Below are positions 26,646 through 58,623 of a stretch of 64,000 nucleotides of DNA, in pieces (the stretch's first letter is position 1; each line of letters starts with the position of its first letter). The translations under genes were made by a program, and so were the position numbers. The stretch is from positions 27,590,001 to 27,654,000 of the forward strand of contig CM022672.1 of assembly GCA_012295275.1 (NCBI GenBank), written 5' to 3'. Under the pieces are notes generated by a model. That model saw only the letters and a program-made list of their open reading frames with translations, was not told the DNA's origin and ran no database searches. The stretch is from Chrysomallon squamiferum (taxonomy: Eukaryota > Animalia > Mollusca).

Positions 26646-27580
26646 CTTGTGTGAATGTCACAATATTTATATTTATTAAATAATTACTCACCAATGGCAA
26701 TTTATTGTAGAATTTACATTTATTTTTCAGTTATTGCGGATTCTGTCCGCAGTTCAAGTACGAAATCGGAGAAACGTTCGGTCGAACGACATCGCGACTT
26801 CTCACAGACAACAAAGTCGCCAATTCCGGGTTGCCTGTCCTCACTGACATCCTAACAGACCTGTGCGACGTTGATAAGGAGAATGAAAAGAGAATGCAGA
26901 TTCTGCGGACACGTCAGCACAGTTTAGGAGATCAGAAGCTTGTTGATAATATGGTTCCAGGTTATTCAGGTTGGTTCTGCTATACAGCATGTACTTACTT
27001 GTGTACGTGCGTGTGTGTGCGTTTGTGTATATGTGTTTATGTTGTGTTTAAGTATGTGTGTGTAAGTGTGTATGTGTTTATTACTATGCTACTAATATAC
27101 AATTATTATATTGTATTCTATCAGTATACGTTTTAGTATGATTATGATTAAGATTATGATTAAGATTACTATTATTTTTATTATTATTATTATTTTCGTT
27201 TGCCAAACAGGTTTTATTCCAAGAAGTGAGAATTATTTTGGCAGCAGGTACACGGAAGTTTGCCGGAATTCCGTGGCTGAGTTTGAGCATAGCTACCAGT
27301 GCCATGATGCCAAAATGCAAGACCTGAAATATAAGTCAGACGCTCTTCCCCGTAATCCCAAAAACTATCCAGTAAGTGTAATCCTATTAGAGATATTACG
27401 TTAAAAAAATGTAATTATTAAATACCTTATTTATTTATTACTGCTATTACTATACTACCGCCATTACCACTGCTACTGCTACAACTATCATTACTACTGT
27501 TACTACTACTACGACTGCTGCTGCTTTCACTACATTCATTTCAGCAAGTATTATTTATTATTTTTGCTTTTTTAACAATT

Positions 27581-27668
<88 letters not shown>

Positions 27669-28753
27669 GTGAATGTCACCCTTATTTATGTTTATTAAAT
27701 AATTATTATTGCAGCCAATTCTAAGCGCTCACCTTAAACCTCTCACTGCAGTAAGATGGGACGCCTTACCGTACATTTCACCACACATCAAGCCAGCTTT
27801 ACCATCGCCATACTACATGGAAAATACAGACCCAAATAAAAACTTCATGTCGGGTAATTATATATTTTTATTTAGCGACAACAATAGCAACAACAGCAAC
27901 AACAACAAGATTAATAACTATAACGATGACGCTAATTATATGATGAAGTCAATAATGATAGCGGCGAAAATGATGATGATAATGAAAAAAAAAAAATAAT
28001 GATGATGATTATAAACGATAGTAATAAAGATAATGATGATGATGATGATGATGATAATAATAATAATAATAATAGTATCTAGATTATAAGACGGGTCGAG
28101 CTATAGCTCCGCTGCAGTCGACAGAGGATCAAGACTTTTGCATCTTTTAAACTTTTTATTTCCCGATCAAACTATGTTCAGTGATATAATAATACTATCG
28201 TCGCAAAATGTTTTTTAAAAGTTGTCTTTGTGTTTCTTTTGTGATAAGTTTTCTTTATGTGCACACATGCAGGCTACAAAGGATTTGTTCCGAGAGCCCG
28301 TAATGTCTTTGGAAAAGGCTACCCAGAACTGACCAACAAAGCTTTGATAACATTCACAGATGAAATGAACAAATTTAAGAGTCTGAAAAACGAACCGATT
28401 ATTATAAAACGAGAACCAGAAACCACATGCACACCACAAGACCTCCGGGAGATCTATCCCGTGGGGTCGGGAATGATCCCAGATTACACAGGACACATCC
28501 CTGGTACGTTTCTCTTTTTTTTGAGAGGTGTGGGGTGGGGTGGAGAAGATAATTTTTTTTATTTTTTTTTTGTTTTTTTGCAATTATTTACAAATGTGAA
28601 TGAGTATGTATTTATGTGGAAAGTTTTCTGTACCAGTAATTGGTTTCACTAAAAAAAAAAAAATAATAATAATATGTTTTATTTTTTACTGATTTAATAT
28701 GAGTAAATTTGACGTATATTTGTTTTGCATTTTTTAAATCTTTAAAGTGCTTC

Positions 28754-28849
<96 letters not shown>

Positions 28850-28971
28850 GTAAAACATTATATTATATTATGTTAAATTTTATTTCAGGCCAAAAGTTTC
28901 GATATGGAGAAACGTTTGGAGTGAGCACAAAACAAATATTTAGCAATCCAGCAGGAGTTAACTGCACTTAA
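24997..28971 (+). CDS. FAM166B: Ciliary microtubule inner protein 2 (FAM166/CIMIP2 family), ~304 aa
   Basis: Exons 24997-25058, 26731-26969, 27211-27371, 27715-27853, 28273-28503, 28889-28971 (915 nt, phases consistent). Motifs FLTPDPYHTPGYCGFCPQFKYEIGETFGRTT, MVPGYSGFIP, FMSGYKGFVP and MIPDYTGHIPGQKFRYGETFG are typical FAM166 repeats. The exact vertebrate paralog (A or B) cannot be resolved. Confidence 0.92.
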
Positions 28972-30752
28972 AGATAGGATGATACTTGTTCCAGACCAGC
29001 GGCAGAAACAAAATGGCAGAGTCAAACAGGATAGAGTGGAATTATATGGAAATATAAATTAATTGCATAAGCCAGTTTACCTAATTTAATTTTAATTTAA
29101 TTTTTTTTTTTTAACTTATTATTACAGATAATGTATCAACGTATAAACGATTTTGTTTATTTGAAATTATATTCCATAATGTAATGACCATCTAGACATA
29201 ATTATTTGTTATTGTACCCTTTTCTTTTTCTTATTTCTTTTTCTTAATAATACAGAGGTCATTCTAAATTTGTCAAAGTCCATAAGTTATTGTTATTTTG
29301 AGCTATAATATTTATTAACGTTTTTACAAAGTTCTTTTAAATAATGGAATAATCATCAATTATATAATCTTCTATTAGCGTTATTATCATCATTATTAAT
29401 AATTCTTAAATTGAATTGTTGTGTAAATATATATTAAGAGAAAATCATTGTGGCCTGGAATAAATTTACAGGTGAAATGACTTTAATTAGAAATATCTAC
29501 AATAAATGGAACAAATGGTGTTTTTTAAAGTATCAGTAATGAAAAATGAAACTCTTTTCACCGCTATTAAAACAACAGACTATTGCGAAACAAAGCATTT
29601 TGAATGTCTTTATATTTATGATTATATTATTTATTTATTTATTATTATTGTTGTTGTTGTTATTATTATTATTATTTTAACGATTATCATTAAATGAAAG
29701 CTCATAAAATAAATTAAAGCTACGCTTTAAGTTTAAGAACATTTCCATTGCAACTGACGAATCCAGTTTTGAAAAATAATATTTACTTTTCTTTTAGTTT
29801 ATCTTCTTGTTTTTTTGTTGGTTTTTTTTTTGTTGGTTTTTATTTATTAAGTTAAACAAGCTATTGCCTTCTTGCTGCTTAAATGAAAAAAGAGAAGAAA
29901 AAAGAAATAGAATTAATATATATATATATAAAATCTTATTTATGTTTTTGTTCTCTTTATAACAACCTACATTTCGCTGGTTTTACATTTTAATCGTTTA
30001 TATCTAAATTTGAATATTTTTAATATTTCGTTATTCTTGAATGTTATTTTGAAGAATACCCGGTTTCGATTAGTTTTTTCAATGGTATATTTAAAATTTT
30101 AACGGTTTCCATTAGTTCTATCAATGCAAATGATAAATCACATATAACAAAATTTGCAGCAACGATTTTAATTTTTATTTAATCTAAAATTTTGAGAATG
30201 GAAGCAATTTTAATGATAATGAACCGTAAACATTTTGAAATTATATATATTAAAAATTACAATATTAAAAATCACTTGATGGCTGATAATAAGAGTAGGA
30301 TTCGAAGCACAGTGTTGAGAGATAAAATTAAGTTTAGTGTCTTGCATATTTATTTTTGTGTAACATTATGATCATACATTTTTACTACTCATCTGTATAT
30401 CATGCATTTACTTAAATTATATGTTGATGTTTTATTATTGTATATATTTTGCTCTATGTTAAAATTTAAAATATTATATCTATTGTGTACAAAATGCAGA
30501 TCTTTATAAAACTTAAGACTATGAAAATAAAAGCGATATTTTTCTTTTTGCAGATATAATTAATTTTTTGTATTGAAATTCGACAGCAGTTCCAGAATAT
30601 CTGAAAATTGAATGTTATAGTTAAGCAGATATAGATAAACACACAAACAAACAGACGCACACGCACACATACGTACATATGTATAAAACATGAGGGAAAG
30701 GTTTGAAAACAATTCTATGGTATAAAAGCTTAACCTGTTACACATCCTGCTA

Positions 30753-30793
<41 letters not shown>

Positions 30794-30942
30794 ATAATAA
30801 TTAATATAATGAAAAGAACAAGAATCAGCTGATACAGAATTTATTTAATAAAAAAGAAGAAGAAAAAGAACAGTATGAAGAATTATATAGCGTAGACAAA
30901 ACTCAGTCTTGTCTTAATCTGTTTTCCGTTTGTAATTTTGAT

Positions 30943-33833
30943 TTAATCACAGTCAAGTTTAACACGATCGAGTTGACAGCCATCAGTCATGTTACATGCC
31001 TGTTTAAATGAAGACGTTTTCAGTCTGTTCAGGTATGTATCTCTGATAGCGTCTTGGTCTTCTGTGCAGGATTTATACTTGTAACTGTCTGCATTGTAAT
31101 CAACAGGTACGCCAGGTGCAAACACTTCAGCTGTAATAAATGAATGAATAAAAATAAATAAATAAATAAATTAATAAATGGCAAATAAGAAGAGAGATCC
31201 AAAATTAAATTCATATGTGTGTGTGTGTGTGTGTGTATGTCTATATATATATATATATACACACACACACAATACATAAACAAAATGGTATTTTAATTCG
31301 TTTTGAAAAATTATTATTACGAATAAAAACTTTTCATTCTTAGTTATACATATCAACGATTTTACACACTACATGAAAAATCAACATAACCTACAACAAG
31401 TTAGTTATTTGTGGACTAAATTTTCTATAAATAGCTATATACAAACTGAATGTTGTAAACAATGTATAAAATATGAACCGATGCAGTTTGGGAGAGGGCG
31501 GTTTGGAACCCACTGTCCTGATGCACCACACACCCACAGTTGACGATGGTCCTCCCCTGCCGGCAGACTCGCCTTTTCTGAACAAAACACCATACAAATC
31601 TGGGCGTAGTCTTCACCCCAGCCATTGCACACCTTCGCTCCACTCACAGGAATGTTGAGAGGTTTGCACGGCGTCGCTGGATGAAGAGGTAATGAGGAAA
31701 TGTTCTAAGTGTAATTCCAGAGTGACCATTCACACATATTAGTGATGAGAAATATCATCCAGGCACAAACATAATTATTATCATCATCACCATCTCAATC
31801 ATAATCGTCAACATTATCATTGTACTCCTCAGAAATGTGTTTGGTAATTAATATAGCGATACTCGTTTTATAAGAACACTAGGTTCTATAATTAACGGTA
31901 TTTTCAGTACAGTTTGTCTGGAGTGGTGGTGGAAATAAATGAATTTTGAAAATTTGTTTATTTATGTAATAATAATAATAATAATAATAGTAACAACAAG
32001 AACAATAATAATAATTTAACTTACGGCGAATGGATATTACAAAAATACATTTCGCTTGCATTGCATTTGAAATCTTTGTCGCTACATATTGCACCGTGAA
32101 GTCACCCCATGGAAATTCTGAGCTATTGGAACCGTAGTTGGATATTACGTTCACTTCTGTTCCCATTGGATCAGTGAATTTCGGAACTGACCAATCAACA
32201 GTCGCTTTTGAAGATTTAATGTGGACTGTGAAGTTATCCATACAATTGGTGACAACAGGGGCTTGTACGTCTGGGGTAAAAAAAAAATAATAAATAAAAC
32301 ATATTAATGAAAACGATAAACGAAAATTAATTTTGTAGTTTTTCATATTTTCATATTGGTTGCTGCGGTTTATTAATTTATTTATTACTTAATACTATTT
32401 TTATTTTATTAGTTTTTCAGCTGTAGATATTCTTTTTATTGGTTTATTCATTCCGGTTTTCGGTTGTGGCAAACAATGATCGTTATCATAAATATAATTT
32501 ATGTACTACATTATTAAATTATAATTTATAGATTATAATTACCAAATTAAATTTCTGGAGGTAGAATATAAATACGTCTGACCCTAAATCCCCGATATTT
32601 AAAAACTAACATCAGCAAACTGAGAAACAGAAACTCATTTAGGAACTGCCAATAAAAAGACATACATCTATAAGAATGTCCGTACCGGTTTGACAGAGAA
32701 CGCCTGCATAGCCTTTGACACAGTCACAGTGGAAAGTTCCGTCTCTGTTATCCACGCACGTCGCTCCGTTCCGACACGGGCCGCTGGGGCAAGGGTTGGG
32801 TGGAGCTAGAGAAAGTCATTAATTTAACATAAACAAGAAACAAATGTAGATACAAGAAAACAACCTATAGTCCTAATTACTACTATTGCTATTACTACTA
32901 CTACTAATAAATAAATAAGCAATGAAATAATGAAACAAATAAAAACAATGAAATAAAGACATTTAAAAAGAAATAAAAAAAAAAAATTGAAAAAAATAGG
33001 AAATAAATATAAAATAAAATAAAACAAAACAAACATAGAAATAAACAAATCTATAAATAAATAAAAATAATATATATTCCTGAAACCAAATTCACTGAAA
33101 ATGAAGACAGATTATAAAAACAAATAATTAGATAAATGTTAACTTCAGCTGGCTGATTTTCACAACACTCTCTTACGTGGACATTTCTGAGTATTGCACG
33201 TCTCCGTCTCGGTTCTGGAACTATTTCCCTGGCAGTCTCTGCCGCCGTAAGCCCTGCCCACACATTGTCTGTGTTTGTAAATCGTTCTGATTCCTCCGCC
33301 ACAAGAATGAGAGCAGCTGGTCCTATCAGTATACCATTCAGTCCAGACGCCATCAACTGATTTTAAAATAATCGTTTAAAACTAAATTTACTTCAAATAA
33401 TGTCAAATATCAAGTCTAGGATTTTCATATCTCAAGATCAGTTTGAAGATTTAAGTAACAGAATATTTATTAGGTTACGTTTCTTTCCTGCCCTGTACAT
33501 CAGTGTCTTATAGATAGTGCATTTTAACGTATATGAAGGTGATTGTAAAACAGAGATCAAATTTATAAAAACACAGGGAAATCTAAGAATGGATGTACAG
33601 AATTTTGTGAAAAAAAATCAAGGGTGAATGACACCCGTGGGATACAGGTACATCGACAGCAGTCGACGAACCCAACATTACTACTATTACTACTACTACT
33701 GCTACTACTACTATTACTGCTACTGATCAGAAAGGTTCTCTCTTTCCACTAATCACTGTTTATACCTTATTGGTTGGACCCGACACTACAGGGAGACAGG
33801 TTCACCTACAGCAGTCGACGAACCTGCTTCTAC

Positions 33834-38662: not shown

Positions 38663-40014
38663 ATGGCGAGGAAAGTGTTGTCTTCTTGCCAGCCTCAATT
38701 TAATTGTGTTAAAACATATGGTAGACTTTTATTATCATTTTGTGTATTACACTCTTATGTAATTAACAGTGTTTATACTGCTTCTGACTGTAACTTAAAG
38801 GGTTGTGAAAATGGAAAATGTGTGAACAACACTTGTGAATGTGACCGCGGTTGGTCTGGAGCATACTGTCAAAAATGTCACGGAAGAGCAAGGTATGTAT
38901 ATAAATAAATAAATAAATATTTCTATTAGGTCATATATGAATGTGACTTTGTAAACAAAACAGTTGCAAAAGATTTGTGAAATACATTTTAACAATTTTA
39001 AAACTATATTTGATGTTTATTTTATATCCTTATCTGTATTATGTATAAAAACTTTGTTAATCTTAATGACATTTCAGTTTTGTGAGCTACTAACACGAAA
39101 TCATCAATGTTATATAAATATATAATTATATACTAATACAAGAATACTAGTACTTCAGTAATTTTTAAGTTACCATAAATCGTTAGGAGCGTGAATCACG
39201 CTCCTTAGAGGAAATAGATTTTTTGTGTATGTAACTATAAGTCTATATTATTTATTTATTATTATTATTATTATCATCATCACATCAAATTTTGAAATTA
39301 ATATTTTACTTCATAAAATGTTTACAATTACAGTGTTTCCTGTGATTGTAATGAATGTCAGTAAAACAAAGCTTTAAATTTAATGAAAACTCTATTACTT
39401 GTATTAGGCCTCAAAAATATTCCATATCCACTCTAACTTTTGTTTTGTTGTTAATTTGGCACTGATACTCTCAGATATCATTGAAATTTTACATGGAGAG
39501 TTCAGTGAAAAATTTCAACCAAGCACATTTATACTTATATACAGTTTCAAAAAGCTGTTGAAATTTGTTGAATATCACATGTTTTGCATTGTGAAAATTT
39601 ATGTCACAACAGGTTATGCTAAGAAGTATCATTTTACTACAAAATATTTTTTTAAAGTTTTTAAAAATTCCAAATGGAGCCATGTATTTAAATTCAACAA
39701 ACCGTTCTTTGAATTTTTACAAAAAATCTTTCTCACAGATAAATGATAAACTAAATATATGTTTGAAAGTTGAAAAACAAGTAAAGTGTTTGCAGATGAC
39801 AATGGTGGGTGTGACTGTCAAAGGCACGTTCAGTCAATACTGTATACATTGATAAAAAAAAAAAAAAAAAAAAAAGTTAATAATAAAGGACTGATTATAA
39901 ATGAGTTGTACAAAGACATTGTAAAGGCTATCAAATTTGTCCAGAAATATTTTGGAACATTCATTTGGGTCAATCTTTACCTTTTTAACAATGTAATTTA
40001 CTTTGAAATTTTAA

Positions 40015-40057
<43 letters not shown>

Positions 40058-41313
40058 TTTGTTGTTCTTTTGTATTTTATTATTTTACTAATATTTCTTG
40101 TTATTGTACATTAATTATTTCTATTTTTCAGTATACTTGCTGATCGTGGTTTGATTATGGATGGTGTAGGCAATTATTCTCTGGATACAAAATGTAGCTG
40201 GTTGATTAAAACAGGACATCCCAACAAGACTTTGCGTCTAAAATTTAACCAGTTTGCCACAGAGTGTGGCTGGGATCATTTGTACATCCATGATGGAGAC
40301 TCAGCTTTTGCACCCTTGCTAGCTGCCTACAGGTACAGTTTGGGATTTTAAAAAGGTTTTTGCTTGTGTAATGCCTAATTTGGTTTTTACAGTAGAGTTT
40401 GAATTTACCTGTTTAAAAAGTGTTTGCTTGTGTAGTCTGCAAATTGATTTTTTAATATATAATGTATGACTGGTTCTTTTAGTAAGTGTAGTTTGCATTG
40501 TCAGTCAAAAAAATTTGCTTGTGTATGCCCAGGTCTGTTTTATAATGTATATCTATGCATGATCAACTGTCTAATGTTGTGTGCTTTTTATTTTTTTGTT
40601 TGAAGGTATTGTTTAAGTTTGTTTATACAGATTTAAAAAAATTTGTTTTATAAATTATACATATTTCATTTAATTTATATAGTGTCTCTTTGTGTGAATT
40701 TATATCTTAAAAAACTTTTTTTTAAATTTGTATTTATTTGATTCAAGTCATTAAAATAATTATATTTATTTTTACTTTATCATGTACATTGACTAGCTCA
40801 ATATGCATAATATTTATATTTATGTGTAATTACAAATTTGCATATTTCCTTAATAAAATTTGTTTATATTTTTATTTTTCAGTGGACTACTGATATCTGA
40901 AGACAAGCAGGGTTCTGATATTAATTTCTTTGCAGTCACTCACCAGCCCTATGTGTACATTCATTTCTACAGTGATGCAGCCTATACCATGTCTGGTTTT
41001 AATATTTCATTTAGGTGAGTGTAATTAAACTGAACAAAGTGAAAATATTTGTGAGATATGTTTTGATTCATTTAGATGTGCTTCATACTTTGACAATTTT
41101 TCTTTCAGATGTAACAGGTGTCATAAACAATCACTATATTTTTGTGATTTTTCTATAGTTTTGCTTTTTCAGTATATCTTTAATGATAGCATTTATCTTC
41201 TTTATTTCATAAAAACTTTCCTTTATTATCTAATTCTATATTGGTTCTTAAGGAGAAATACATTTTGAAATTTTGAAACAAAAAAATAACAAAAAAATAT
41301 ATATATAACACAT

Positions 41314-41351
<38 letters not shown>

Positions 41352-44300
41352 CTATTTGCATAAAGATATGTTTTGTTACATTTGTGTCATGTTCAAATAC
41401 TCCTTATCCTGGTTTTTAAAATTTATTCTTTTATTAATATTTTTATTTTTATTTTTATATTATTGTTTAATTTAACTTGATTATGATATATTGATAATGT
41501 AAAAAAACTGGCTAAAACATTAATGACATTAATTCATATCGAACTAGTATTATATAAGTTGTTAATAAGTCATAAATTCTGTTTTCATTTTGAATATAAT
41601 TTTAATTTACTGCATACAATATACTCTCAGGTGAATTCTACGCCTTATGCAGAGATGACCTATATACATATTTTTCAAGTAATGTTTAATAACACTCAAG
41701 AAACAAACGTGGGCAGGAGAAATTTATTACTGTTTCCTTTTACATCGTTGAACAAGTTTATGACTGTACACTGGATTTAATAAATTCCTCTACTCCAGTT
41801 TTCAGAAACTCTTGTTATATTTTATGGTGACATTTCTGTTTATTCATTTAGATAATAGCAGTTACAAACTGACACTGGTAATATAGAGTATTTAGAAATA
41901 CATTTTCCTGTTCTAAAACACTGGATATTTTTAATGAAAGATTTATAAATATAAAAAAAAAATGTAGTTAATTAATTCATAACTGTTATGAAAAGCTAGG
42001 CTAAAAAAACCCAACAAAAAAAAACATAAAAAAAAAAGAATAAAAAATACAAATAAAAATACAAATAAAAATAAAAAATGACATAAAAAATAAAATAAAA
42101 ATCATAATGATAATAATAAAATAAAAAATAAATAAAAAGGATAATTATTTAATACAAAAATGAATTACTGTATATTGTCTATTATATGTCAAAAATATTT
42201 ATTAGTATATAATGTAAATGCTTGTGAATGTTTGTAATACACCTCCAAAAGATTCAAATAACTGATATTGAAATTTTAATAATAATGTACTTCACTGTAC
42301 TACCTTGAAAGATCAAATCTATTTTTTGAGGGTGGAAGATTTGGTAAAAAGACATGAAAAGGTTTTCTTTGCCCAACAGCATGGCACTATCACAGCATGA
42401 TGATAATGTGTTGTTATAACATTTTATTTCCAGTGTTGGTGACTGCCCGCTGGGTTGCTCGGATCATGGTACGTGTGATTCAGGTAGCTGTACGTGTCAT
42501 GTCAACTGGACTGGATCAGGTTGTGAGACAGAAATCTGCCCTAGTCAGTGTAATGGAGAACAGTGCAACAACGTCACTGGAAAGTGCCTTTGTCCAGAGG
42601 GCAAAAGAGGTGAAACATAATCTTATTTAAAACTCTTATTGATACAAGTTGAGGTTGATATATTTTCACACAGCAGTAAAATAGTGGCACTGAAATAAAA
42701 GAAAGTATAGAAAACAGAAGTAATTATTAAATGGAGTTTTGTAAACAGTTTAATTTAATTCCTTTGAGTGTAATAAAACAGTTACTTAAAATTATGTTTT
42801 GTGGGTTTTTTATACTTTAATACCTGAAAACTCAAACATTTTTTATGTGCTCCAAATACAGGTAAATGAATTTTGTGATAACTATAATATATTGATTTAA
42901 GATAAGTATTTAAAAAAAAAGTTTCATAACATTTTAATGTAATTTCAGGTCCTGACTGTGGTTTGTCAGGAGGAGAAGGGGTATGGGAGGATGTCACTTC
43001 TCAGAATGCTCCAATAGCTGGTAGAGCATCACATGCTACTGTTGTCAATGGCAACGAGATGTGGGTATCTGGAGGCTACAGTCTGACATTTAATGAGTTC
43101 TCTGACCTATGCAGGTACATCTTTTGGACACTGTTATTATTAAGAGATAAAAATAAATGATACTCTACTGTTAAAAGTTTAGATATATTTAATCTTTGTA
43201 ATTAATATTAATGTTAATATTATCATTCTTAACCTTTCTTCAATGAATGGAAATTTTTTCTTTGGTGAATCTATTAGTAATTGAAGTACCAAAGATTCTG
43301 TAAGCTGGACATTAATATATTATTATTTATAAAATTATTTATAAGAAAATATCATTTGTGTACTTATTTTTCTTTTTATTTCTTAAAAAATAACAATGAT
43401 ATGCCTTTTATTTATTTATCTTATATTTATAATATATATTTTTTTTTTAGCATCTAATTGCTGTGAACCATTTATTGCTCTGTGTTATTAAAAATAGACA
43501 AATAATCATGAAAACTGATACTAAACTGTTTCTTATTTAATAATGCAGAATGTAATGTAATGAATGGAATTAATTTCATTTTAGGTTTAACATGGTGACA
43601 GAAACTTGGTCTTGTGAAGAACCAGCTGGTGAAAGACCTGTTAACAGATACGCACATTCCATTGTTTTTCATGAGGTACATATTTTTGAGTTCCAACTAA
43701 CACTGAATTGTTTATTTGTTCATTTTTTAAAAATTGTTAATTTTTTCTTTTTTAATTTAAAATATTCCTTTTGTGATGCCTATATTTGTTATAAATTTTA
43801 AAAAAAACCCCAAAACCCATTATTATTATTTTAAATTTGATGTTATTATTTTATTTATTTCTGATCACAAATAACAAAGTATGCCAATAAAATAATAATA
43901 TTAATATTTGAGAATCTACCTTTTCCTTTTCAGTGGATAGCTATGCAAGTTTGTTTTAATGTCAGTAAAAATACATTACATTTCAAAATTAATTGTATAT
44001 AGTCTTTTCTTTTTTCTTTTTTTGAAATTATATGGAAATAGCAATTATTAGTAAAATGGAATAATATTCAAGTTTTATCTAAGTTGTTACTGGGTGATGT
44101 TAATGCATCCTGAAAGAGAATTTTTGTTATATAAATTATAAAACAAAATAACTGTAATATGATCTAAAATATAATGCACTGGATGTTAGCCACTTATTAA
44201 TTTTACGAGATGTGCATGGAAAATTGATTATTCTGAAATTGCAAAAAATTATAAAGCATTTGAATAAATATATATATTACAAATTAAAATAAATACATTA

Positions 44301-47300
44301 GATTAAAATTATGCAGTTATATAGAGAAAAAAACAGCTTTTTTTTCAGTTTTGTATTTTTAAGTCATTGTCTTATTACTTTCACTAATGATGATGTGTAT
44401 GTGTGTATGTGTGTGTTATGTCTTCCTCTATATGTCAACATACATTTGATCATAATATTACCATTATCAAGATAGAAAATGAAATACTTTTGCCTTCTTT
44501 AGTCAAAAGAGTTAACAATATGATTTGAGGTTTATAATGTTGTTTCATGTTGAAAATCATTTTATTGGTTTTATATTGTTGAACTATTCTGCTAATTTGT
44601 TATTTGTTTTAATCTTATTTGTTGTAAAAGTAATGCATTTGAACACATTGGCATTTTCATCAAGACGTAGGTGAAATGATTAACATACATATGTTTTTCT
44701 CCACAGAACAAGTTGTACTTGCATGGTGGGGTTGTGGATAGCAGACCCACCAATGAGACATGGGTGTATGATATAAGTTTGAAAACTTGGAAAAAACTGG
44801 CATCATCCACCATCCAATCTAGTGGACATGTAGCTCATTACTTTGAAGGAAATATCCATGTCATCTTTGGTTACAGTCCAATTTTTGGTTATCTCAACAT
44901 TGTTCAACTGTACAATATAGGTATGTTGTTGTTTTGTTTACTTCTGCTTTAAATTGTTTGGCAGAACAAATAATAGTGGCTGATGTTGTGATTTTTGAAG
45001 AGATATGGTTGATTTTGACAAAGTCCGCTGTATATGTAGATGTAGATTATAGCTATAGTGGAACATCAAAACCAGCCTTTGTCTAATCAAAATACTGTCT
45101 GACTATGTTAATCTATTATGAACAAAACTGACTAATCTGTATATTCTCTGTTTGGATTCCAAGAGCAAATTCCAGAATATGTTGGAGCACAGTTAAACAA
45201 GGAAGGCAAATGGACATAATTAGGCTAGAGGAGTTAAAATGAAAAAAAAAAAAAAGAAGCAGCCAGCAGTGACAGACAGTTTCTAAAGCAGAATCCAGTT
45301 GACATTTATTTGTAAAATTTCTAATTGTATTCCAGCTTCATGTCATTTTAAACATTTTATACAGCCACTGATTAAACAGACACATATAAATATAATTATT
45401 ATATATATATATATATTCCTTCCTCTGTGTGTCTGTTATTGAATACTAGTATCCTTTTTTTAATAAGTGTCACCAAGTCAAAAGGAAAATATAACATTTT
45501 TGTGTTTGATTTTGCTCTTTCAGCTAATGATTCATGGACAGTGACAGAAACAACAGGTGCCACAGTTCTCGGAGGTTATGGTCATACCAGTGTAGTTGAT
45601 GATCAGCGAAATCTCATTTACATCTATGGAGGTTACCATTCCAGTAGTCAGTCAAGTTATAACCTTACTGATGTCCTGTACTGTTATGAACCCAAACTGA
45701 GAAAATGGTTTGTATCTGTTTGTTAATAACTGTCAAAATTACAACACATTCACACTTCATGAAACAAGAAGTAATTATTGAACTACAACTCCTTAGACAA
45801 ATGATCTATAAAAGTTATATTACTGATTTCTGTTAACTTTGGAGAGAAAACTGAAATTAAACACATTTACTCATGCATAGATTGAAGTTTCATGGGTATC
45901 CTTTCTTTGTGTTCATGCTTACATGAATGAAAAAAAATTAAAGTTATTTTATGTAATCAATCAGAACTTAGGAAAATAAATCAAAACATTTTGCATTTAA
46001 CAATTTACTTCAATTTCCTTATGAATGAAGAGCTTGAGTTGTTTTTTTGTTTTTGTTTTGTATCCTAATTATTTTTGAAAAAACAAAAGAAAAAACAGAG
46101 TACATTTTTAGTTTACTTTAATTTCAGGACAATTCTGCGAAACAGTCGATCACCCCGCTATTTACACGCTGCTGCCTTAGTAAACGACATGATGCTGGTG
46201 TTTGGTGGTAACACACACAACGACACGTCTGTCAGTTATGGAGCCAAGTGTTACTCAACAGACTTCATGGCTTATGATATCAGTAAATATTCTTTTTTCT
46301 GTTAGTCTTCCATAATTATTAAAATTTTATTTTTGAAATGTTTCCTTTATTTGAAACTGTGTAAAAGTAATGCAAAATCTATTGAAAATTAATAGTTATC
46401 TCTGCATGTTGATTTCTCTTACTAAGTTTGAGGGAATTTATACAGGAATTTGCCTGGAAAAAAAAAAGAGAAGAAATTTGTTTCCTAAGCATACTATCTC
46501 TTATCTGTGTTTAATGTTAAAAATGTTTAAGCAATTTTCACTCTTCTTTAATAAAAAAAACTTTTATAAAGTATGGTTTATAACAGTAGTATGTGTATTG
46601 TTATCAGTGAGTTTATTTTTCTGTTTGTTTTTCAGAATGTAACTCCTGGCATTTTCTTCAGACCCCCAGTATGGATAAAGACCTGGCAAGATATGGTCAC
46701 AGTATGGTGTCATTCAATAAGTATGTTTTTTTCTAAGTTTATAACCAATCTATAAGCATTCAAGTCCACTACTTGTATTCAGTAAAACAAAAACACTGGT
46801 AAATAAGTGTAATATATGAAATAGAAATCTATTGTTACAGAGTTCCCACTGAATGACTGTGAACAAATTCAGTTATAAATAATATTGCATTTTTATTTTT
46901 TATTTACTTTTTTCAGTGAAATTTTGATGTTTGGTGGCTTCAAAGGTGTTATGTTGAATGACATAATAAAATTTATACCAGGTAGGAAATTTATTTATTA
47001 TTTTTTAACATTTTGATTTATAAAGCAAGTATATGTTTAAAAAACAAAAAAAACAAAAATAACTGTCTCTATACAAACAGTTAGCACTTTGAAGACTTAA
47101 ATCTCTTTAAACCTTTTAATTATATCAGGTTTAATCCCTTTTTTTTTTTTTTTTTAGATTTCCTTTATAATTTGACTGTCCATAGATATCAGTAGGTGTT
47201 CAACCTTTAAAAAATAGAAAACAAAGTCTGTAAAATAATGTAGCTGAAGCAAAAGCCTTATACTGTCAGTGGCTGCATTTTAATTATTGAGTCTGAATCT

Positions 47301-48238
47301 GAAGTTGCTTAATGGCAACCTGTTGGCCATGTATGATATCTTTTCATTAGTGGCCAAGTTTGAATGCACTCTTTCAGTGTTATTCACTGGTGTTTGCACA
47401 TTACACAGAATTTTTACCACGCACAATAAGGGATGGTTGCACTTAATATTAACGTATTACTCAAGTACTGCACGATACCTGTAATTGTAATGTTTTATTT
47501 TCTGCTCTTAGGAAACTGTAGTTACTACTTAGACAAGGACTTGTGCGAGCAGAGTCTCCCAGGAGTGAAGTGTGTTTGGTCTGGTGGAAAATGTAAACAG
47601 AGAGATTCTTCTTACATTGATACGTGTGATCCCAGTCAAGGTGAAGTTTTCAGTCTGTTAAAATTTTTGGAAAAAAATATAAAAAGCCATAGAAAACCAG
47701 TGTTTTCCTGAAAGTGTTTAAAGAGTAAAATTATGTGCCCTTCAGAGTACTATTATGTACCTTCAAAACTGAAAATCTGTCCTGTAACATAATTGTATTC
47801 CAAGTGTGTTAAAATGCAAAATCAGATTTGTAATTGTTTATATTTTGTTGATGTATTTGTGATAACTATAAAAATATAAAAGTGCTGAATCCTGCATTAT
47901 GTTTTATCATTGGATTATATTGAAAGTTGGTAAACAAAAAAGAAAAATAGCAAAGAAAAATTAAATAAAAATATTTCTAAAATTTAATATGACAAAGAAA
48001 AACAATCCAAAAATTAAAACCAAAAAGAACTAATGAAAAATCATTTACCATTGTTTTTATTTTATTTTAATTAAAACTGTGTTCTCTTGTTACCTGTAGG
48101 ATCTGATATTCACTGCTTCAGATTCTCGACATGTCCAACATGCAAATACAACCTCTACAATTGTCACTGGTGTCACAACAAGTGTACCAACATATCATGT
48201 GTGACAGAGGTATGCACCACTATGTTTGTTTAAATTAT

Positions 48239-48324
<86 letters not shown>

Positions 48325-49247
48325 TTTTCTCTACATAATATTGTATTTTTTTTCCAATCACATATTTCTTTATATTGCATCTTAATTACAAATACAGACT
48401 ATCATTAAATATATGATTGTTATATTGAAACTTTAATAGCATAATTTTGGAGATAATAGTTTCTATTTTCTACATTAATGTTAGCTTACTTTACAAAAGC
48501 TTTTATTAATCTACATATCTATCAGCTGTCTTGATACATTTTCTAATCATGATAAATGTATATTTATCTTTATAATTTTGAATGTTAATTCATCTTAAAT
48601 GTGTGCTTCATATATGCTTTAGACTCACTATCATCCAGTATTTTTTCACAGAATGTTTGTGTCTATAACATTTTTTGTCTTCTATCTTTACTAATAATGC
48701 ATCATCAGTTAGCCACTGAATATCTTTTAGATAAAAATGTAATATTATTTCTTGCTTAGTGTGTGTCTTGATTAGTTAATGTTTGTGGTATTGTTTTGCC
48801 AGAGTAGCACATAAAAATCACTGAATTGTAGGCACAGACAGACAGATACACAGTTGATAAAGATACCATGTTCTCCGGCATCTGACAAACAAATGAATTA
48901 AAGTTTTACTCTTTCAAGCCTTATAATTTATTATTAATTACTTACATTTTCAACATAAATATCTTCATAACAACAGTGCTTATATAGTAGTGCAAAAAGA
49001 ACTGAAATGAATTTTATTATATCATCATTCAGGTGTAGAACAGAATACTTTGCAGATAATGAAAAACTGTCATGTACATTCTTATCATTTAATCCTGACT
49101 TATCTTCAAATTTCTTTAATTGTTTTGGCCATATGTAGATTATGTAACAGCAGCATACTACTAAAAATAATTTGTTTTAGGTGTAAAGGTTTTTAGAAGT
49201 TCATATTATAATATACGACTGCATATTATTTTGTTTTGTTTTATTGG

Positions 49248-49280
<33 letters not shown>

Positions 49281-52197
49281 TTTTTTTCACTCATTTTGAT
49301 TATTGTTGCCATTACAGCTTAGCTTTCACTGTTTTCTTTCTTTCTTTTTTATTTTTATGTTAACTGCATGGCTGATTGTTTTGCTTTATAGAGAATCAAT
49401 GACACTAATTGTACGGATCTTGGATGTGAACTTCTGCATTCTTGTCAGGCTTGTGTTAGTGCTCAGTGTGTTTGGGACCGAACCAGCTGCAACTACCCTG
49501 TGAAAAATAAATCAGGTGCTTTCTTTGTGCATGGTGTTGATAGCAGTTGGGAGATCTTTTAATGAAGTATGGCCTTAAATATAAGTGTGTCACATTAATT
49601 TTAAGAGATACATTAAAAAAGAAATTTCATCAGTACATTTAATTAAAATAATAATATTAATAATTGTTAATTGGCTGATATAATATTAATAATTGTTAAT
49701 TGGCTGATACATAATATTGGTCATACTTTGGAGATCTGAGAGTGCTTTATGCTTTCAAATTTTTGAAATGCTTCATTGAAATACCTCCCAAACCAGCTTA
49801 TTGTGCACTTAACACTGTATCGATTGCTAGTCATTTATGATCTGTCAGCATTTATTGGTTAAAAAAATAAAAGTATATGTGTATATATATTTAAGAGAAT
49901 TTCGCAGTTGTCCTGTTTTTCATTAGCATACCACTGAGCCATTAGATGGATGTTTAAGTTTGGGCTGTGAAACCAAACATACCTGTCAGGCTTGCTACAG
50001 GGAAGGATTATGTGTTTGGAACTGTGAAAAAGGCAAAAACTGCTGTGTTTCTATATTTGGTGAGAGCTGTGTTATTTATAATCAGTGATTCTCAACGTGG
50101 TCTAAAGTGTCCCATCCTTGGAACATTTCAACACATTAATTACAGTAATATCCCATCCTTGCAATATTTCAACAACTTAGTTACAGTAATGTCCCATGCT
50201 TGGAACATTTCAACAACATTTCAATTACAGTAATATCCCATCCTTGCAACATTTCAACAACTTAGTTACAGTAATATCCCATCCTTGCAACATTTCAACA
50301 ATAGTTACAGTAATGTGCCATACTTGCAACATTTCAACAACTTAGTTACAGTAATATCCCATCCTTGCAACATTTCAACAACTTAGTTACAGTAATGTGC
50401 CATACTTGCAACATTTCAACAACTTAGTTTCAGTAATGTCCCATGCTTGGAACATTTCAACAACTTAGTTACAGTAATGTGCCATACTTGCAACATTTCA
50501 ACAACTTAGTTACAGTAATGTGCCATCAGTCTGTTTTATACATTATAACAGAAAATTAGATTCTTCAAAACTTTCATGGAGTTGTAACAGATATGGGATT
50601 GTCAATTGTAACAGAAGTCTGAATTAACTGTTATTGGTTTAAAATTAATAATTGTGAAATAGTATAAATTTAGAATCACTTTAATTATAATTCCATTTAT
50701 AAATATAAAGAAACTGATAATGGAAAAGGAGGATTTCTAATTTTACTAATCTGACAGGTGAATTTACTTAAGAATAATAAAAATCTGTTTTGTTTTTAGA
50801 AAATCTGTCTCGTGTAGCCAGTAATTCAGTAACCAGCACACAGCAGTGTGAACCTCCATGTTCTGTTCACACAACCTGTGAGAACTGCACGTGGAAGTCC
50901 TGCATGTGGTGCAGCAACTTGAAGCAGTGTGTAGAAACAAACTCCTATGTGGCTTCCTATCCATACGGTCAGTGCACAGAGTGGACGACCAAGGATTCAA
51001 AATGCCCCGGTCAGTATACAATTAAAGAAATTGAAATTACAGTTCACATTTGAACATCTTTTACTTTTTCTTATTCATAAAAGTGTGTTTACCTTTAAAC
51101 TGATTTCACATTAGTCATGAAAAAAGACACACACACACTCATTTTACATATATACATGATTTTATATATATACAGATATATATACACTTTAAGCAGTGTG
51201 TACACACACACACATTATAATAAACATAAGTATGAATTGAATATGTATACACACATACACAGATCAATCCTTAGATCCATCCATGCATATACATAATAAC
51301 CATGTATCTTTCCATCAGATGCAGGCTTTATTTATTAGTAAAGATGTATTTCTATTCAGCAACCCGGTGCTCTGGGTTCAAGTCATGTGAGGCGTGTCAG
51401 ACACACCCTTTGTGTGGCTGGTGTAATGATCCAACAAACACTGGACTTGGCATGTGCATGGAGGGATCATACAAAGGACCTATCTTACAAAATGGTACAA
51501 AGGCTGTTGTTGATTTTGGAATATGTCCTGCTGAAAGATGGTTCTTTCTGAAATGTCCATGTAAGTTATTCACTGGAATCTGAATCACAGTCTAGAAATT
51601 TCTGTTTTATTATTAGTTATATATATTTTTTTTTTTCAACATTTAGTGATTTACACGAGATTATAAATAATACTGCATATGTTATTTTTGGTTTGTACCA
51701 TAATTATGTCTATTTTTTCTTCTGAGAGTGTATCAAATTTAACTTTTTCTTTTTTCTCATCTTTCTTTTTTTTATTTATGTACATTTAATCACACACAAA
51801 AGATTCTAAATAGTTCTTTGTGTTAAGATGTTGTTCAGTCATATCTAAATTTATGGTATCATGGCTATTTCTTCTTAAATAATTTAGACCTCAGTGATTA
51901 TTTATTTAAAATGCTTATTATTTGTTGTTTAAAACTGACTTTTACAAACTCTGTCTACTTATATTTACATGATGACATTGTGATTACATGTATGCCTTTG
52001 TGGTTGTGTTTCTTATTAAGACTGGATTGGAAAAAACAAAACAAAAAGTTAAACATAACTTGGCATATAGTCAATTATTTTTATCATCAAACATACATTA
52101 TAGATTGTTATAAACATCTATTTCTGATGAGCACATTATTATGAAACCTTCAGTATAATTATGACTGAAGAAAGGTAACTGTTGTTTAAATATTTTA

Positions 52198-52240
<43 letters not shown>

Positions 52241-55200
52241 AATAAAACAAACATGTAAGATCTCCAATATAAAATAAAACAACTGACAAGATTAATTTGT
52301 TTTCAGTGTGTCAGTGCAATGGACACAGTACTTGCAAAAATGGGACAAACATTTGTGAAGAGTGCAGACATCTAACTGAAGGTAAAACATCACATAAAAA
52401 ATATCTGATTGCATGAATGTGAAGATACCAATACAAACTCATAGCGAAAATCCAGATTCTTCTTGAGACAAGTTAAAGGTTTTTGCATTTTAATTTCCAT
52501 AGCTGTGTGTATAATAGGTAATTATGAATCAATGACTATAAGGCTGGTCAATGCTACATATTGTTTTCATACAAGAACTAATAAGCTTATGTGTTAACAT
52601 CAATGTGTGTATTAAAATTATTTGTATTCAAAATGTTTGTCTTATATTTATTTTAAAATTATTTATTGTAATATTTTGAAAATCATCCTGTTTGAAATTT
52701 CTAATTTTATCTTTTTTTTTAAATTGTTAACATTAAATGGATGAAGTAGATGTCACTATATATTTTTAGGAAAATACTGTGAGTTCTGTAAGAAAGGCTA
52801 TTTTGGAAATCCTCGAAATGGTGGCAACTGTTCAGGTAGGTGGTTACTGTTTTTATTTATAAATTTAGCTTATGAAATTTTTTATTTTCATTGTGCACAT
52901 AGAGCATTAATGATTTCATCATTATTAATAATAAAGACTTATTATTATTACTGAATATTTATAAATGGTTGAAGAAGTCGTTGCTTATTTTTTATTTTGT
53001 GGACAGAAATGTTATGTCACTTAAAGTGATGATGATGTTGATAATGATGATGTGCAATCTATGTGACAAATATAACTTTGTTCTCAGTTAATAACAAAAG
53101 TGTTTACGACTTAAATTAAAAAACTTCTCAGTTTTTGTTTTCGATTTAATTTATTCCTTAAATTATTTGATTTCTACAAATTAAGCATTCATAGCTAAAT
53201 GGTTAGAAAACTTGCCTTTCTTTTTTTTACTGTGACATATATGACAATATTTTCCATTCTAACCAGAGCATCATTTTATAGTTATTAAAGACTGTTGTAT
53301 ATATGTTTTTTTCATATTTAAGGGAAAAAATTGTTTTAATTAGTGTGTTTGTTTATCCCATGGAATAGGTTTATATTCTCAGTTCATCCAGAAAATATAA
53401 ACTGACATTTAAAAAGTGTAAAATTAAAATGTATAGAATTGTTACCTTTATGTATTATGATATTTGTGTCTGTCCCAGCATGTGTGTGTAATGGCCAAGC
53501 TGACAGTTGTCACAGGGAGAAAGGATACTGTAACTGTCGAACCCGAGGGGTGACCGGGCAAAACTGTGAAACGTAAATACTGTTTACTTTTATATTTTAT
53601 CATTTGTTTTAGTTCATGATTCATGAAATGTAAATATTTTTAACTTGTATTTTATTTTTGTTCTTTTTATTTTGTTTTGTTTTTTGAAATGTAAATATTA
53701 ATTTTTGTTTATATATTTTTTAAATTTAGTTTTTTTTTTTTTTCATTTTAAGTTTTATTTCATGAAATATAATGTTATTTATTTTTGTCAGCATCTAAAT
53801 GTTTCTTAAAAGTTACTTAATCGGATACAATATTTATCATATATATATTTTAAAATGGTTAGAGGGAAAAAAATATTATATTGAATTTATTGTGTGTAAT
53901 TACACCAAACATAAGGAGATTACAAAAATTTCCTTTACTGAAGTTATGGGAAAAAATTAACACCTTTCAAAATAAAGTAACATAAAGATTTTAAATTCTA
54001 GATTGACATGAATTAAATTTACAGAATTAAATGTTACAAAATAAATTATATATATATAAATATTAATTTTCAGATGTGACAGAGAACATAACTATTTTGG
54101 TGACCCAAAAGGGGGAGGAACTTGTTACTGTAAGTATTTCAGTCTGATAGGTTTTATAGTTATTTCTGCTAGAATAATGTAAATATGAACAGTAAATAGT
54201 TTTAACTTCAGAGAAATTAATATGTTGACTTCCATTTAGTTAAAAGAAAGTTAAAAAAAGAAAAGAAATCTAAATGTTTTTATAAAAAGAATATATACTA
54301 AGCAAAACAGGTCAAGTTTCTGCATTACATTATGTGGAGATCATTAAGATAATTAATTAATGGAATACATTATTTATATTTTGTACATTACTGTTAAATT
54401 GTATTTTCTAAATAAACAGTGTGATTAAGTACATCTGTGTAATACAATTAATAAATATTTTTATGTTTATTTTTTGTCTTTTCTGCCTTAATAATGACAT
54501 GTTTAATATGTAAAAAATACAGTTATATTAATAATGACATGTTTAATATGTAAAAATGAATATATTAATAATCACATGTTTAATATGTAAAAAATTGAAA
54601 TTATATATTCACTTACAGACCAGCTTAAAACAGATTATCAGTTCACTTTCAACCTCTCCAAAGTTGAGGACCAATTTTACACTCAGATCAACTTTATGAA
54701 TGTTCCTAAGTCGGTTAGTATTCTTTTTACAGAAAGCAAAAACATAGTAAACCAAACCTGTGCTTTCTAAAGATATACAGTATGAAATGTGCTTTTCTTT
54801 ATTGTTAATTATTAAATGTTATTTAATAATAAACTTTAACGGTATGAAAAAAAAATGAAAACAATATTTAAGAATTGGAATTGGAATCTGTTACAATTTT
54901 TAACATAAAATCATTTTTTTCATGCTGATGTTTAAAAAGAAGTATAAACTCTAGATTTAACCAAAATTTTATTATTTTTAGAGTAAAAATTGAAAAAATA
55001 TTAATGTTTTAGCATTTAATGAAATTGTTAAATGTAAATCATATTTAAGATGTAATGAAATTGTTAAATCTAAATTGTATTTCAAATATTTAGGGGGACA
55101 GAGATGTTGATTTTACACTGAACTGTTCTGGTCCAGCTCTACTGAACATCACATTTAAATCTAGTAAGTATGACTGAGGAAATCAAATGATCTCAGTATC

Positions 55201-55357
55201 TAAAACAGTGGTAAATTTTCTAAATAACAATCAATACATTATTTTGACTCAGAAACAAATGATTCTGCAATATAAAAAAACAGTCATCAACAACAACAAC
55301 AGTAATAAATAGGAGAAATGCTAAACAGCTTCTGTTTTTTAGATTTCTTTCTTTCTT

Positions 55358-55394
<37 letters not shown>

Positions 55395-58239
55395 TACATA
55401 TTTTTATTAATTTTTGTTTTGATAAAATATTATTTTCATTTTTTTTGTTTTTGTTTTTATATTTTTCAAAATCTGAACTTACTTAAAAAAATGTTTCTAA
55501 AATGTTATAAATCTCATTGTTTATATTTGAGTATATTTGTCTTGTTTTAAAATATATAAATTCTTCATCTTTTCAGATTCTCATCCTGTGGAAAAATACA
55601 TAGTTGAGTCGTATGCTTGTGACTTTTTCCGCTCAAAGTTTGAGCACAAGGACTACTCATTTGCAGGAGAGCAGAACACAACATTCCTTGTATATGTTTA
55701 TGATTTCCAAACTCCATTCTGGCTACAGGTTTGTAGATAGTTTAAACACAAGTTACAACAGCTTGTAATAAAAAATATATATATATTTTTAAAGTATGAT
55801 CTTTTAATAGAGTTTATTGTATATGTTAATCACATCAAATGTATTAGGTTTTTTTTATTTTATTAAATTTAAAAAAAAAAAAAAAAATATATATTACCAT
55901 GCTAATTTACTATCATTTTGACTTAGTGTTTTGGGTGGAAGATAGAGTAATAAGTATTAACACATCTGTGATATCAACATTTACCTTTGTCTGACACCCA
56001 ATAGCTCATATATTTTTTGTGCTGGAGAGTTGTTAAACATTCATTCTTTCTTTGTATTTAGTATAAGATCTGTTTTGATGTTAATGTTTTTTGAAAGTGT
56101 GGTTGTACATCCTAGCCATATAATTTCATTATTTACATTTTCTTGCTCTGTACTTGTTGCAGTATTTTTGCACATAAACATATAACACATATGATATAAA
56201 TGAAAATATTACAGAAGTAAATTCTCAAGATTCTTTCCAGGAAAGCAGTTTTGAAGGAGAAGTCATTAAAATTTATCATTTTTAAATAAAATTCTCTTTT
56301 CTGTTAATATAGTTCATTTGATGATAGACCCCATATTCAAGTAAATAACTGATTGTTTTCTATCTTTTTTCTCAGATCTCATTTTCTCAGTTTCCTAAGA
56401 TTGATCTTGTTCATTTCTTTGTAACCTTCTTCAGGTGAGCCAGCTAAAATTATAAATCTTTCTCATATTAATAATTTTATTTCACAAATTCTGTGCTGTT
56501 TGAAACATTATCTAATTTTTCATAGTTATAATTTTTTGATGTATTAAAAATATTGTTAACATTTTTATAACTTTTAGTAATTTTAAAAATACCGTTACAG
56601 CTTTACAATTTTTTTGAGTTTTAAAACTGCTGTGATTTTTTTCAGAATTTTGTGACATTTTATAAACCTTAATATTATTTTTTTTTAGAAATATATGATG
56701 TTTCAAAAATCTTCTGATCCTTTAAAATGTTCTGAAGTTTACTGTAAGTTTATCATAGTTTTAAAAATAAGCCAGTGTTTCGTATTTTCTAGTTGTTTCT
56801 TATCTCTACTGCTGATTGCTGCTGCTTTGTGGAAGATAAAACATAAATACGACAGTTACAGACGACGTCAGGTAATTACTGTATTAAACAGACACACACA
56901 CAGACAGACAGACACATATATGCAGAGAGAGATTCATCTATTGACATTTTCAGTATTTATAATAATTATGTAATATAATAATTAATACTGCTTTGAAGAA
57001 AAAAAACCCTATAAATGTTGCCAGCTCTTTCTTTCTTTAACTATTTTTTCATTTATCCTTATTATTAATCTAACTCTGTTGTTATCAGTACTATTAGTTT
57101 TATTATTACTATTATTATTTATTGTTACTTAATTTAGAAAAACGTTTTGATATGAAGTGCTTAGAAAAATATTAAAATATGATCCATACACAAACAAAAA
57201 AACAACTAAAAATACAAAGTTGAGATAAAAAACTTTTATCATAGAATCTTGATGAAGATGTGTTTAAATGTCAGAACTTTTGCTCATTTCAACAAAAAAA
57301 ATTATAAAATAAAATAATGTAATATTTATTCATGGAAGATATAATTTTTAAATGGTAACCAAGCATCTGAATACATCAGCAGTAAATAATTAAACTGTTA
57401 CTATTCTTCTTTTCACAGCTTATGTTGGTCGAAATGCAACAGATGGCTAGTCGTCCATTTTCTGCTGTGTGTATTGAAATAGAAAACAAAGTGGACAAAG
57501 TAACAGCAGAGAAAAAAGATCAGAAAGAAATATCTATGATTCGTAGGAGGAAGAATGTAATTTTATTTTTTATTCAGCAGAATTCGCATTAATTTCTAAA
57601 ATTTTAAAAACACCTTTTTTAGAGCTCCTCTTCTCATCTGCTGAGACATGTTTTGGCATCTGTATAAATCAAATAATTTATGTATTATGTTTTACTATTA
57701 TTATTTTTAAATTGTTTTTAGAAATTTAAATGATTTATATATACATAAATAACTTCAGTTTCAAGTTCATTCTTAATGAATCAGTGAATGTTTCATGTAA
57801 TACTAGCTAAAGAAAAGGTATTGGCTAGTAATAACAGCACTACCAATAATGGTATTAAAGTTTAAATTATTTTTATCTTAAACAAAATAAGACATTCGTT
57901 TATTTATTTTGCTTAGTTTCAACAGACTCTCATGTATTTTACAGTTTGTAAACAAGCCAGGTGCTATTTGCTTGGAGCCTCTGCATGGAAACAAGGCGGC
58001 AGTACTTACTCTAATAATACAGCTTCCCACTGGGGACAGTCCGTATGCTCCCAATGGGCAGTCCGGTATCGCCTTGGGCAGTTCCATGATCACATTTGGG
58101 GGTGAGTTCATTTATTTCTTACATTTTGTCATACTTTTTAATATTTCTGTCCTGTGTTAAATATTTTTTTGTTTGTGAGTAGCCACTACAATAATAAATG
58201 TCAAATCAGTTTCTGAAGGATTTTCCTCTTTTTAAAAAA

Positions 58240-58289
<50 letters not shown>

Positions 58290-58623
58290 TTTTATTTTAT
58301 TTTATTATATTTTATTTATCATTTTTTGTTTTAAAAATGGTTATCAAATTAGTTTTCAAACTAATATTGTTATTTATTTCTTCTAGGATATAGATTAATA
58401 ATGAATTTATTTATTAAGAAGAGGATTATTAATTGGTAAAAACCAGCAGTATGTGTATATCACACTGAACTTATGTATTATTGTTATTGTTGTTATTATT
58501 TTTTCTTCAGGAAACACTCGCAAACAGAGCATAGAACACATCAAAGGAGAAAAATCGAGACTTCGCAAACATATATCAGCTCCTATAATTCAGCATGTTT
58601 CAGCAGATCACAGTAGTGTCTAA
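38663..58623 (+). CDS. ATRN: Attractin / attractin-like protein (~1208-1211 aa): EGF, CUB, EGF, kelch repeats, PSI, laminin-EGF, TM, MASRPF tail
   Basis: Exons 38663-38892, 40132-40332, 40883-41014, 42434-42609, 42949-43114, 43585-43675, 44707-44920, 45524-45707, 46128-46282, 46636-46720, 46917-46981, 47512-47640, 48100-48209, [49392-49515 or 49927-50059], 50800-51009, 51360-51560, 52307-52381, 52770-52835, 53479-53572, 54074-54129, 54619-54713, 55094-55163, 55577-55728, 56376-56434, 56793-56871, 57419-57556, 57945-58101, 58511-58623. Hallmarks: FATECGWDHLYIHDGDSAFAPL, FGGNTHNDT, DLVHFFVTFFSCFLSLLLIAAALWKIK, EMQQMASRPF. ATRN versus ATRNL1 cannot be distinguished. Confidence 0.96.
50107..50527. 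repeat. ~39-bp minisatellite, about 11 copies, in an attractin intron
   Basis: Unit approximately acttagttacagtaat(a/g)t(c/g)ccat(c/a/g)cttg(c/g)aacatttcaaca, contiguous with no unique spacers. Confidence 0.95.
54489..54593. repeat. Short tandem repeat, 3 copies
   Basis: taataat(g/c)acatgtttaatatgtaaaaa occurs three times. Confidence 0.8.
55985..56050 (+). mobile_element. Possible SINE 3' tail relic
   Basis: gtctgacacccaatagc...gtgctggagagttgttaaacattcattc ends in a (CATT)n-like tail. The resemblance to gastropod SINE tails is recalled, not verified. Confidence 0.35.

Follow-up and report, generated by a model that had tools for sequence, protein, structure and literature searches.

We describe a duplicated exon in an attractin-family gene of Chrysomallon squamiferum, found in a 64,000-nucleotide stretch of DNA that was analysed as a whole (hereafter the window). 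Two neighbouring exons, A and B, encode alternative forms of one small, disulfide-bonded PSI-like module. They form a tandem duplication whose members are likely spliced into the message one at a time, A being the common form and B a probable minor or tissue-limited one.

Duplicated exons in an attractin gene

The encoded protein has EGF, CUB, EGF, kelch propeller, a stack of PSI-like modules, laminin-EGF, stem, transmembrane helix and MASRPF tail in that order, with the tail motif at 57419-57553. It thus combines the CUB-EGF-kelch-PSI-laminin EGF-stem-transmembrane order with the MASRPF tail by which the Attractin/ATRNL1 family is recognized. In a tree of 25 proteins, with exons A and B excluded from the window row, the gene fell within the gastropods as sister to Haliotis (abalone) with support of 99, and placement among the bivalves was rejected (AU p 4.5e-05). 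A homologue search with exon D as query returned one match. The features needed below are as follows:

38717..58578, plus strand: Attractin/ATRNL1-family gene, located by tblastn with named mollusc attractins; ends approximate
48100..48209, plus strand: upstream exon U, a PSI-like module ending in phase 0 (sequence and RNA contigs)
49392..49515, plus strand: exon A, 124 nt, phase 0 to 1, six cysteines; the form in the main spliced contig in 4/4 RNA runs
49516..49926, plus strand: A-B intron, 411 nt, with 20 AG dinucleotides throughout and no AG-free zone; partly under B-linked RNA contigs
49927..50059, plus strand: exon B, 133 nt, phase 0 to 1, eight cysteines; donor joined to D in 3/4 runs
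49944..49946, plus strand: internal AG of exon B; a start at 49946 gives in-frame A+B, a use not seen in the RNA contigs
50108..50527, plus strand: 41-bp tandem array, 10.2 copies, beginning 48 nt past the exon B donor
50800..51009, plus strand: downstream exon D, starting in phase 1; Pfam PSI 35.9 bits, over the cut-off

The positions, lengths, phases (0 to 1) and AG/GT ends that an earlier note on this DNA had assigned to the two exons all agree with the sequence, and its claim of a duplication is borne out. A and B align with a BLOSUM62 local score of 76, a value that none of 2000 shuffles reached. Six cysteine-rich exons of the region form 15 pairs, of which this one scores highest (the runner-up has 52). 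Among 29 exon segments scanned, with the transmembrane segment checked separately, A/B is the sole case of such a copy inside an adjoining intron. The two exons are tandem duplicates. The number of cysteines is even in both, and the module shares its Cys/Trp pattern with the Pfam PSI / plexin repeat family (PF01437). However, A reaches only 17.1 bits against a curated cut-off of 23.1, exon B has no Pfam match at E<=1, and both are shorter than the 52 positions of the model. Therefore, the PSI label given in the earlier note holds for the pattern but not for the profile, and we refer to the module as PSI-like.

The proposed frame logic was reproduced by translation. Both U-A-D and U-B-D are open, U-A-B-D meets a stop three codons into B, and U-D, with both exons skipped, is frameshifted into an early stop; with a length of 3n+1 for each exon, a message that retains the pair or lacks it runs into an early stop. 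A splice from A to 49946 preserves the frame. The first two letters of exon A are AG, which creates a second, frame-shifting candidate acceptor 2 nt on (49394); the RNA contigs agree with 49392. The 41-bp array 3' of the exon B donor could influence the use of B.

Elsewhere in the window, two related open frames on the plus strand (20167-20670 and 22808-23236) lie 2.6 kb apart with 46% identity over 127 aa. Neither has a clear Pfam family; the two are probably paralogous genes or exons in tandem. At 26711-28649 (plus strand) lie exons of a ciliary microtubule inner protein 2B-like gene, with PF10629 over the cut-off in two frames. Overlapping or adjoining this gene on the minus strand (about 27200-33400) are frames that we take to resemble thrombospondin-type, EGF and sushi-like exons of an extracellular protein.

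Transcripts and apparent selection on exon B

Splicing was followed in assembled contigs from the five public runs that cover the region, four RNA runs from one study (X1 to X4) and one run of unrecorded kind. The latter (X5) is DNA-like and was compared on 42300-48235 only, and so provides no check on the A/B junctions. All nine introns between 42607 and 48100 are spliced in the RNA contigs of X1-X3, and a 2111-nt contig present in X1 and X3 runs from spliced EGF exons through U and A to D. The main contig is unbroken at the end of U, and among the loose ends listed on 42300-48235 the one at the U donor leads to A. Four junctions had been predicted in the earlier note, and three of them were recovered from contig loose ends over 48330-50105: U>A (48209>49392) and A>D (49515>50800) in each of the four RNA runs, and B>D (50059>50800) in three. 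The fourth, U>B (48209>49927), appeared in none of the four sets of assembled contigs, which drop rare variants. Assemblers prune low-coverage short links next to a high-coverage path, and a rare U>B link would be affected; its absence is therefore weak evidence. A join from A to B, via either 49927 or 49946, was likewise found in none of the four RNA runs (contigs over 48330-50105, with low power at such depth). Since A is spliced straight to D in every run and no A>B joint occurs, constitutive inclusion of both exons is excluded, and with it the constitutive 49515>49946 junction named beforehand as the outcome that would speak against mutual exclusion. For A, exclusion is directly visible, as the exon is joined to both neighbours with B skipped; for B, the proposal stands as a presumption. 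The single variant listed for each exon (49484 in A, 49935 in B) lies at a third codon position and is silent.

Contigs containing B extend back into the A-B intron, to 49578, 49889 and 49861, with no loose end, and those with the B>D junction all begin in that intron or inside B. In X4, one contig starts at 49944, also without a loose end. The B donor is found unspliced as well in three of the four RNA runs. B contigs have depths of 3-6 compared to 8.6-54 for A contigs, albeit contig depth is a poor measure of abundance, and stray contigs in other introns of the gene have depths of 3-4. Because the B>D contigs are at approximately pre-mRNA depth and keep the upstream intron, they may be splicing intermediates, so that a mature B mRNA is an inferred product.

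Exon B nevertheless has the appearance of a maintained coding exon. It is open over 44 codons, and its GC content of 0.41 matches the other exons (0.41-0.49) and not the flanking introns (0.23-0.28). The 23 aligned core codons of A and B hold 13 identical residues, including five cysteines and the tryptophan, and B residues C14, C20, C23, C29 and W31 are invariant in 48/48 aligned rows, counted over core columns only, as the alignment of short exons with full proteins is scrambled outside the core. In a simulation of neutral decay to full divergence, none of 20000 copies retained the frame, the six shared Cys/Trp residues and both splice dinucleotides, which argues that B was under selection for most of its history. 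With partial neutrality all were retained in 6/5000 copies (half), 164/5000 (a quarter) and 1369/5000 (a tenth). Thus, exon B looks selected on the evidence of its sequence, and a late lapse would be compatible with the simulation.

The splice sites of B were scored with a crude matrix. Its acceptor (3.9) lies below that of A (5.0) and above the site at 49946 (2.2), compared to a range of -0.9 to 11.8 for 11 confirmed acceptors of the gene; nine of these 11 are stronger than the B acceptor, which fits a minor exon. The B donor scores 5.8, and both B sites fall inside the range of the gene's 11 confirmed sites. Pyrimidines make up 13 of the 17 nt preceding 49927 but 9 of 17 at 49946, which has two AGs before it. 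Codons 49927-49945 contain no stop and match the beginning of A in the alignment, which would be expected of a true acceptor at 49927.

The same module in other molluscs

We also examined attractin isoforms in 30 attractin clusters, among the members listed, which for one 42-member cluster were 15. Among the listed records, all 12 pteriomorph bivalve species with at least two long records (three scallops, five oysters and four mussels) have this same module swapped between isoforms, with boundaries at matching protein positions. The swap was seen in none of 16 other species with at least two listed records (two heteroconch bivalves, five gastropods, three octopuses, a nemertean, a brachiopod, two arthropods and two lancelets), in which an unannotated isoform does not equal an absent exon. 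The bivalve isoforms were compared as proteins and are database models; examples of swapped pairs are:

Mizuhopecten: XP_021361112.1 vs XP_021361114.1
Ostrea: XP_056005895.1 vs XP_056005896.1
Mytilus trossulus: XP_063432338.1 vs XP_063432339.1

These isoforms sit in databases as unnamed X1/X2/X3 models, and the observation of the swap is new here. Their presence in 12 bivalve species supports the mutually exclusive reading of A and B, although pteriomorphs belong to a different mollusc class from the window gene, a gastropod one. Two modules in a row occur in one of 201 attractin records compared from the kelch end to D, an automated Mytilus coruscus model. This model enters its second module late, as a join at 49946 would in the window gene, and suggests that the mussel copies are tandem exons. 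Eleven other double profile matches are to the adjoining upstream module, and four of the 201 records gave no match. A search with the A/B alignment among longer proteins yielded two candidates and no match, which is weak evidence.

Since the window gene is a gastropod gene and sister to that of abalone, the duplication may have occurred twice. By parsimony on the annotations, two gains (one in pteriomorphs, one in the window lineage) are simpler than one old gain followed by losses in several gastropod and bivalve groups. A and B score highest against gastropod modules and each other, and neither shows a clear preference for either bivalve type (mean scores 50-57). In a 47-row module tree, from which Elysia was left out because it lacks the motif, A and B are placed among the gastropods, not as sisters, with support of 80/95 (unstarred). 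Module trees rest on 50-51 columns, and none of six constraints was rejected (p values of 0.66 for A+B, 0.45-0.72 for A or B with either bivalve type, and 0.74 for bivalve type 2 alone); exon B is on a longer branch in them. Residues shared by A and B use the same codon in 10 of 13 cases compared to 6.7 expected at saturation (P 0.04), a weak sign of what may be a younger duplication. On balance, we lean toward an independent origin in pteriomorphs and in the window lineage.

Optional short in-frame inserts lie beside the module in several animals: 31 aa before it in Octopus, up to 22 aa after it in Mya and Dreissena, and 21 aa after it in Lineus. Such inserts mark the region as a hot spot of alternative splicing. 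A second swap of equal length, at the end of the stem and the start of the transmembrane helix, occurs among the listed isoforms of nine of the 28 species compared, namely three scallops, five gastropods and Lingula, in which the alternative is six residues longer. In the window, the transmembrane-start exon (56376-56434) is the only such exon between 55730 and 56793, and in several species the models terminate just past this exon. The stem/transmembrane swap looks older and could bear on the choice of receptor substrates.

Alternative readings, mechanism and comparison with known systems

The transcript data raise the question of whether B makes protein at all. B might be a left-over or non-productive copy with a donor that is used occasionally and an acceptor that is not, in which case the resulting RNAs are degraded and all protein carries A. 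This would account for the lack of U>B in all four runs and for B>D contigs that retain the upstream intron near the background depth of introns, and it agrees with the longer branch of B in the module trees, its lack of a Pfam match and a recent loss of selection of the kind the simulation allows. However, a 44-codon open frame with invariant Cys and Trp residues, exon-like GC and the right phase at both ends is not easily reconciled with such a copy, the missing U>B joint counts for little in contigs that lose rare branches, and a two-form module has been maintained across scallops, oysters and mussels. We therefore consider a non-productive B unlikely.

Two further readings give B a product of another kind. 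A could always be used and B sometimes added through 49946, giving one more module; A+49946 is in frame, the site has a crude-matrix score of 2.2, the X4 contig starts at 49944 (though without a loose end) and a gene model of Mytilus coruscus has the two modules joined in like manner. No A>B joint was seen in any of the four runs, though, and the site has the poorer tract (9 vs 13 of 17) behind two earlier AGs. Moreover, two modules are found in just 1/201 records, and codons 49927-49945 are open and aligned with the start of A, so that we hold an optional extra exon to be very improbable. Finally, a shorter transcript could begin in the A-B intron, with B as its opening coding exon, and encode an attractin without CUB and kelch. 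B-containing contigs do start at 49578, 49861 and 49889 with no loose end, but these starts vary between runs, contigs cannot reveal RNA starts, and comparable low-depth intronic contigs occur in other introns. With an intact phase-0 acceptor on B and no signal-peptide exon identified there, we give this short transcript almost no credence.

How would such exclusion operate? Some pre-mRNAs, the minority, would have the B donor spliced to D first, after which U would join the B acceptor, with the removal of A. Exclusivity would be enforced mainly by frame: messages with both exons or neither would carry an early stop with some 14 exons downstream and presumably be removed by nonsense-mediated decay. 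The premature stop does lie far upstream of the last junction in both cases, the 14 or so downstream exons being identified by homology. A steric mechanism would need a branch point no more than about 50 nt from the upstream donor and a stretch free of AG from there to the acceptor. It finds no support here, as 20 AGs are spread over the 411-nt intron with no AG-free zone, which makes steric blocking unlikely. The docking/selector pairing suggested in the earlier note did not materialize in the flanking introns: over five pairs of intron regions, the best duplexes were not above shuffles (3 to 15 of 25 were as low). The longest inverted repeats near A and B are AT-simple. A 19-nt stretch (49757-49775) is 79% complementary to several copies of the 41-bp array, again not above shuffles.

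In an AlphaFold model of abalone attractin (75-row alignment, mean pLDDT 78.6), the module spans approximately residues 648-680. Its pLDDT is 81-83 at the core and lower, 57-64, where it begins, and its predicted helix-helix-strand-strand pattern is that of its neighbours in the stack. The module is self-contained in the model, which makes a swap of one module plausible. A search for a solved attractin ectodomain found none, the best sequence matches being to kelch, EGF and laminin chains and a short MEGF8 stretch; in a fold search, all of the matches listed were kelch propellers. The A/B swap would alter one surface module of the stack that separates the kelch propeller from the laminin-EGF stalk. 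With it, the contact of this membrane adapter with a ligand or partner would presumably change, while the MGRN1-binding tail stays constant.

Vertebrate ATRN and ATRNL1 have the domain order and MASRPF tail in common with the window gene. However, the vertebrate records listed have a single copy of the module, with a C-type lectin domain inserted directly after it. The earlier note had placed the exons around the vertebrate lectin domain; the module does sit right before the insert, but the lectin is not at the module itself. The idea that the module replaces the lectin domain was discarded, since vertebrate records have both. In the available text of PMC12752501, ATRN is an adapter that brings the MGRN1 ligase to surface receptors, and the ligands of the large ectodomain, ligand control and the way in which such adapters set the substrate choice of MGRN1 are presented as open questions. 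Attractin is also the receptor of a Vibrio toxin, with binding placed in the stem domain in the available text of PMC12632345; toxin escape was accordingly rejected as a reason for the swap, the stem being distinct from the module. It is conceivable, albeit speculative, that the module is a recurrent switch, duplicated independently in pteriomorphs and this gastropod lineage at the spot of the vertebrate lectin insert. Together with the stem/transmembrane swap of many molluscs and a brachiopod, it might allow one invertebrate gene to supply MGRN1 with adapters that differ in their ligand and receptor-substrate specificities. A module kept in two forms by two mollusc lineages points to a site at which sequence is likely to matter, and A and B, which differ over about 45 residues, offer a natural pair of variants for assays of binding or degradation.

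We found no description of alternative PSI-like exons in attractin in the full-text literature, most subscription papers being outside that scope. ATRN is absent from the main text of PMC5740500, and ATRN, ATRNL1 and MEGF8 are absent from the supplements of that paper that were examined and from the supplement of PMC8373072, tables that may be incomplete. The pair also makes a test case: one exon may be duplicated over and over, or a single duplication may be lost in many lineages, and the available text of PMC5740500 does not settle which for other genes.

According to the accessible part of that work (Hatje et al. 2017, PMC5740500), mutually exclusive exons are recognized as neighbouring, similar exons with the same frame, similar length, bridging junctions and no in-frame reads that join them, and joint inclusion is incompatible with the frame in 377 (60%) of human clusters. 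A and B are likewise neighbouring and homologous, of the same frame and phase, similar in length and not divisible by three. They are similar in sequence, frame and length, A>D bridges B in 4/4 runs, and no A>B joint is listed in the contigs of the four runs, at a depth that gives low power. In the stricter form, with each exon joined on both sides, U>A, A>D and B>D were seen and U>B was in 0/4 contig sets; by the criteria of that work, as far as its accessible part gives them, the missing U>B bridging junction makes A/B a candidate. It seems likely that A and B are a mutually exclusive exon pair with A dominant. The splicing mechanism is ordinary and known; the attractin case is new, and the swap of the same module in bivalves adds to its interest.
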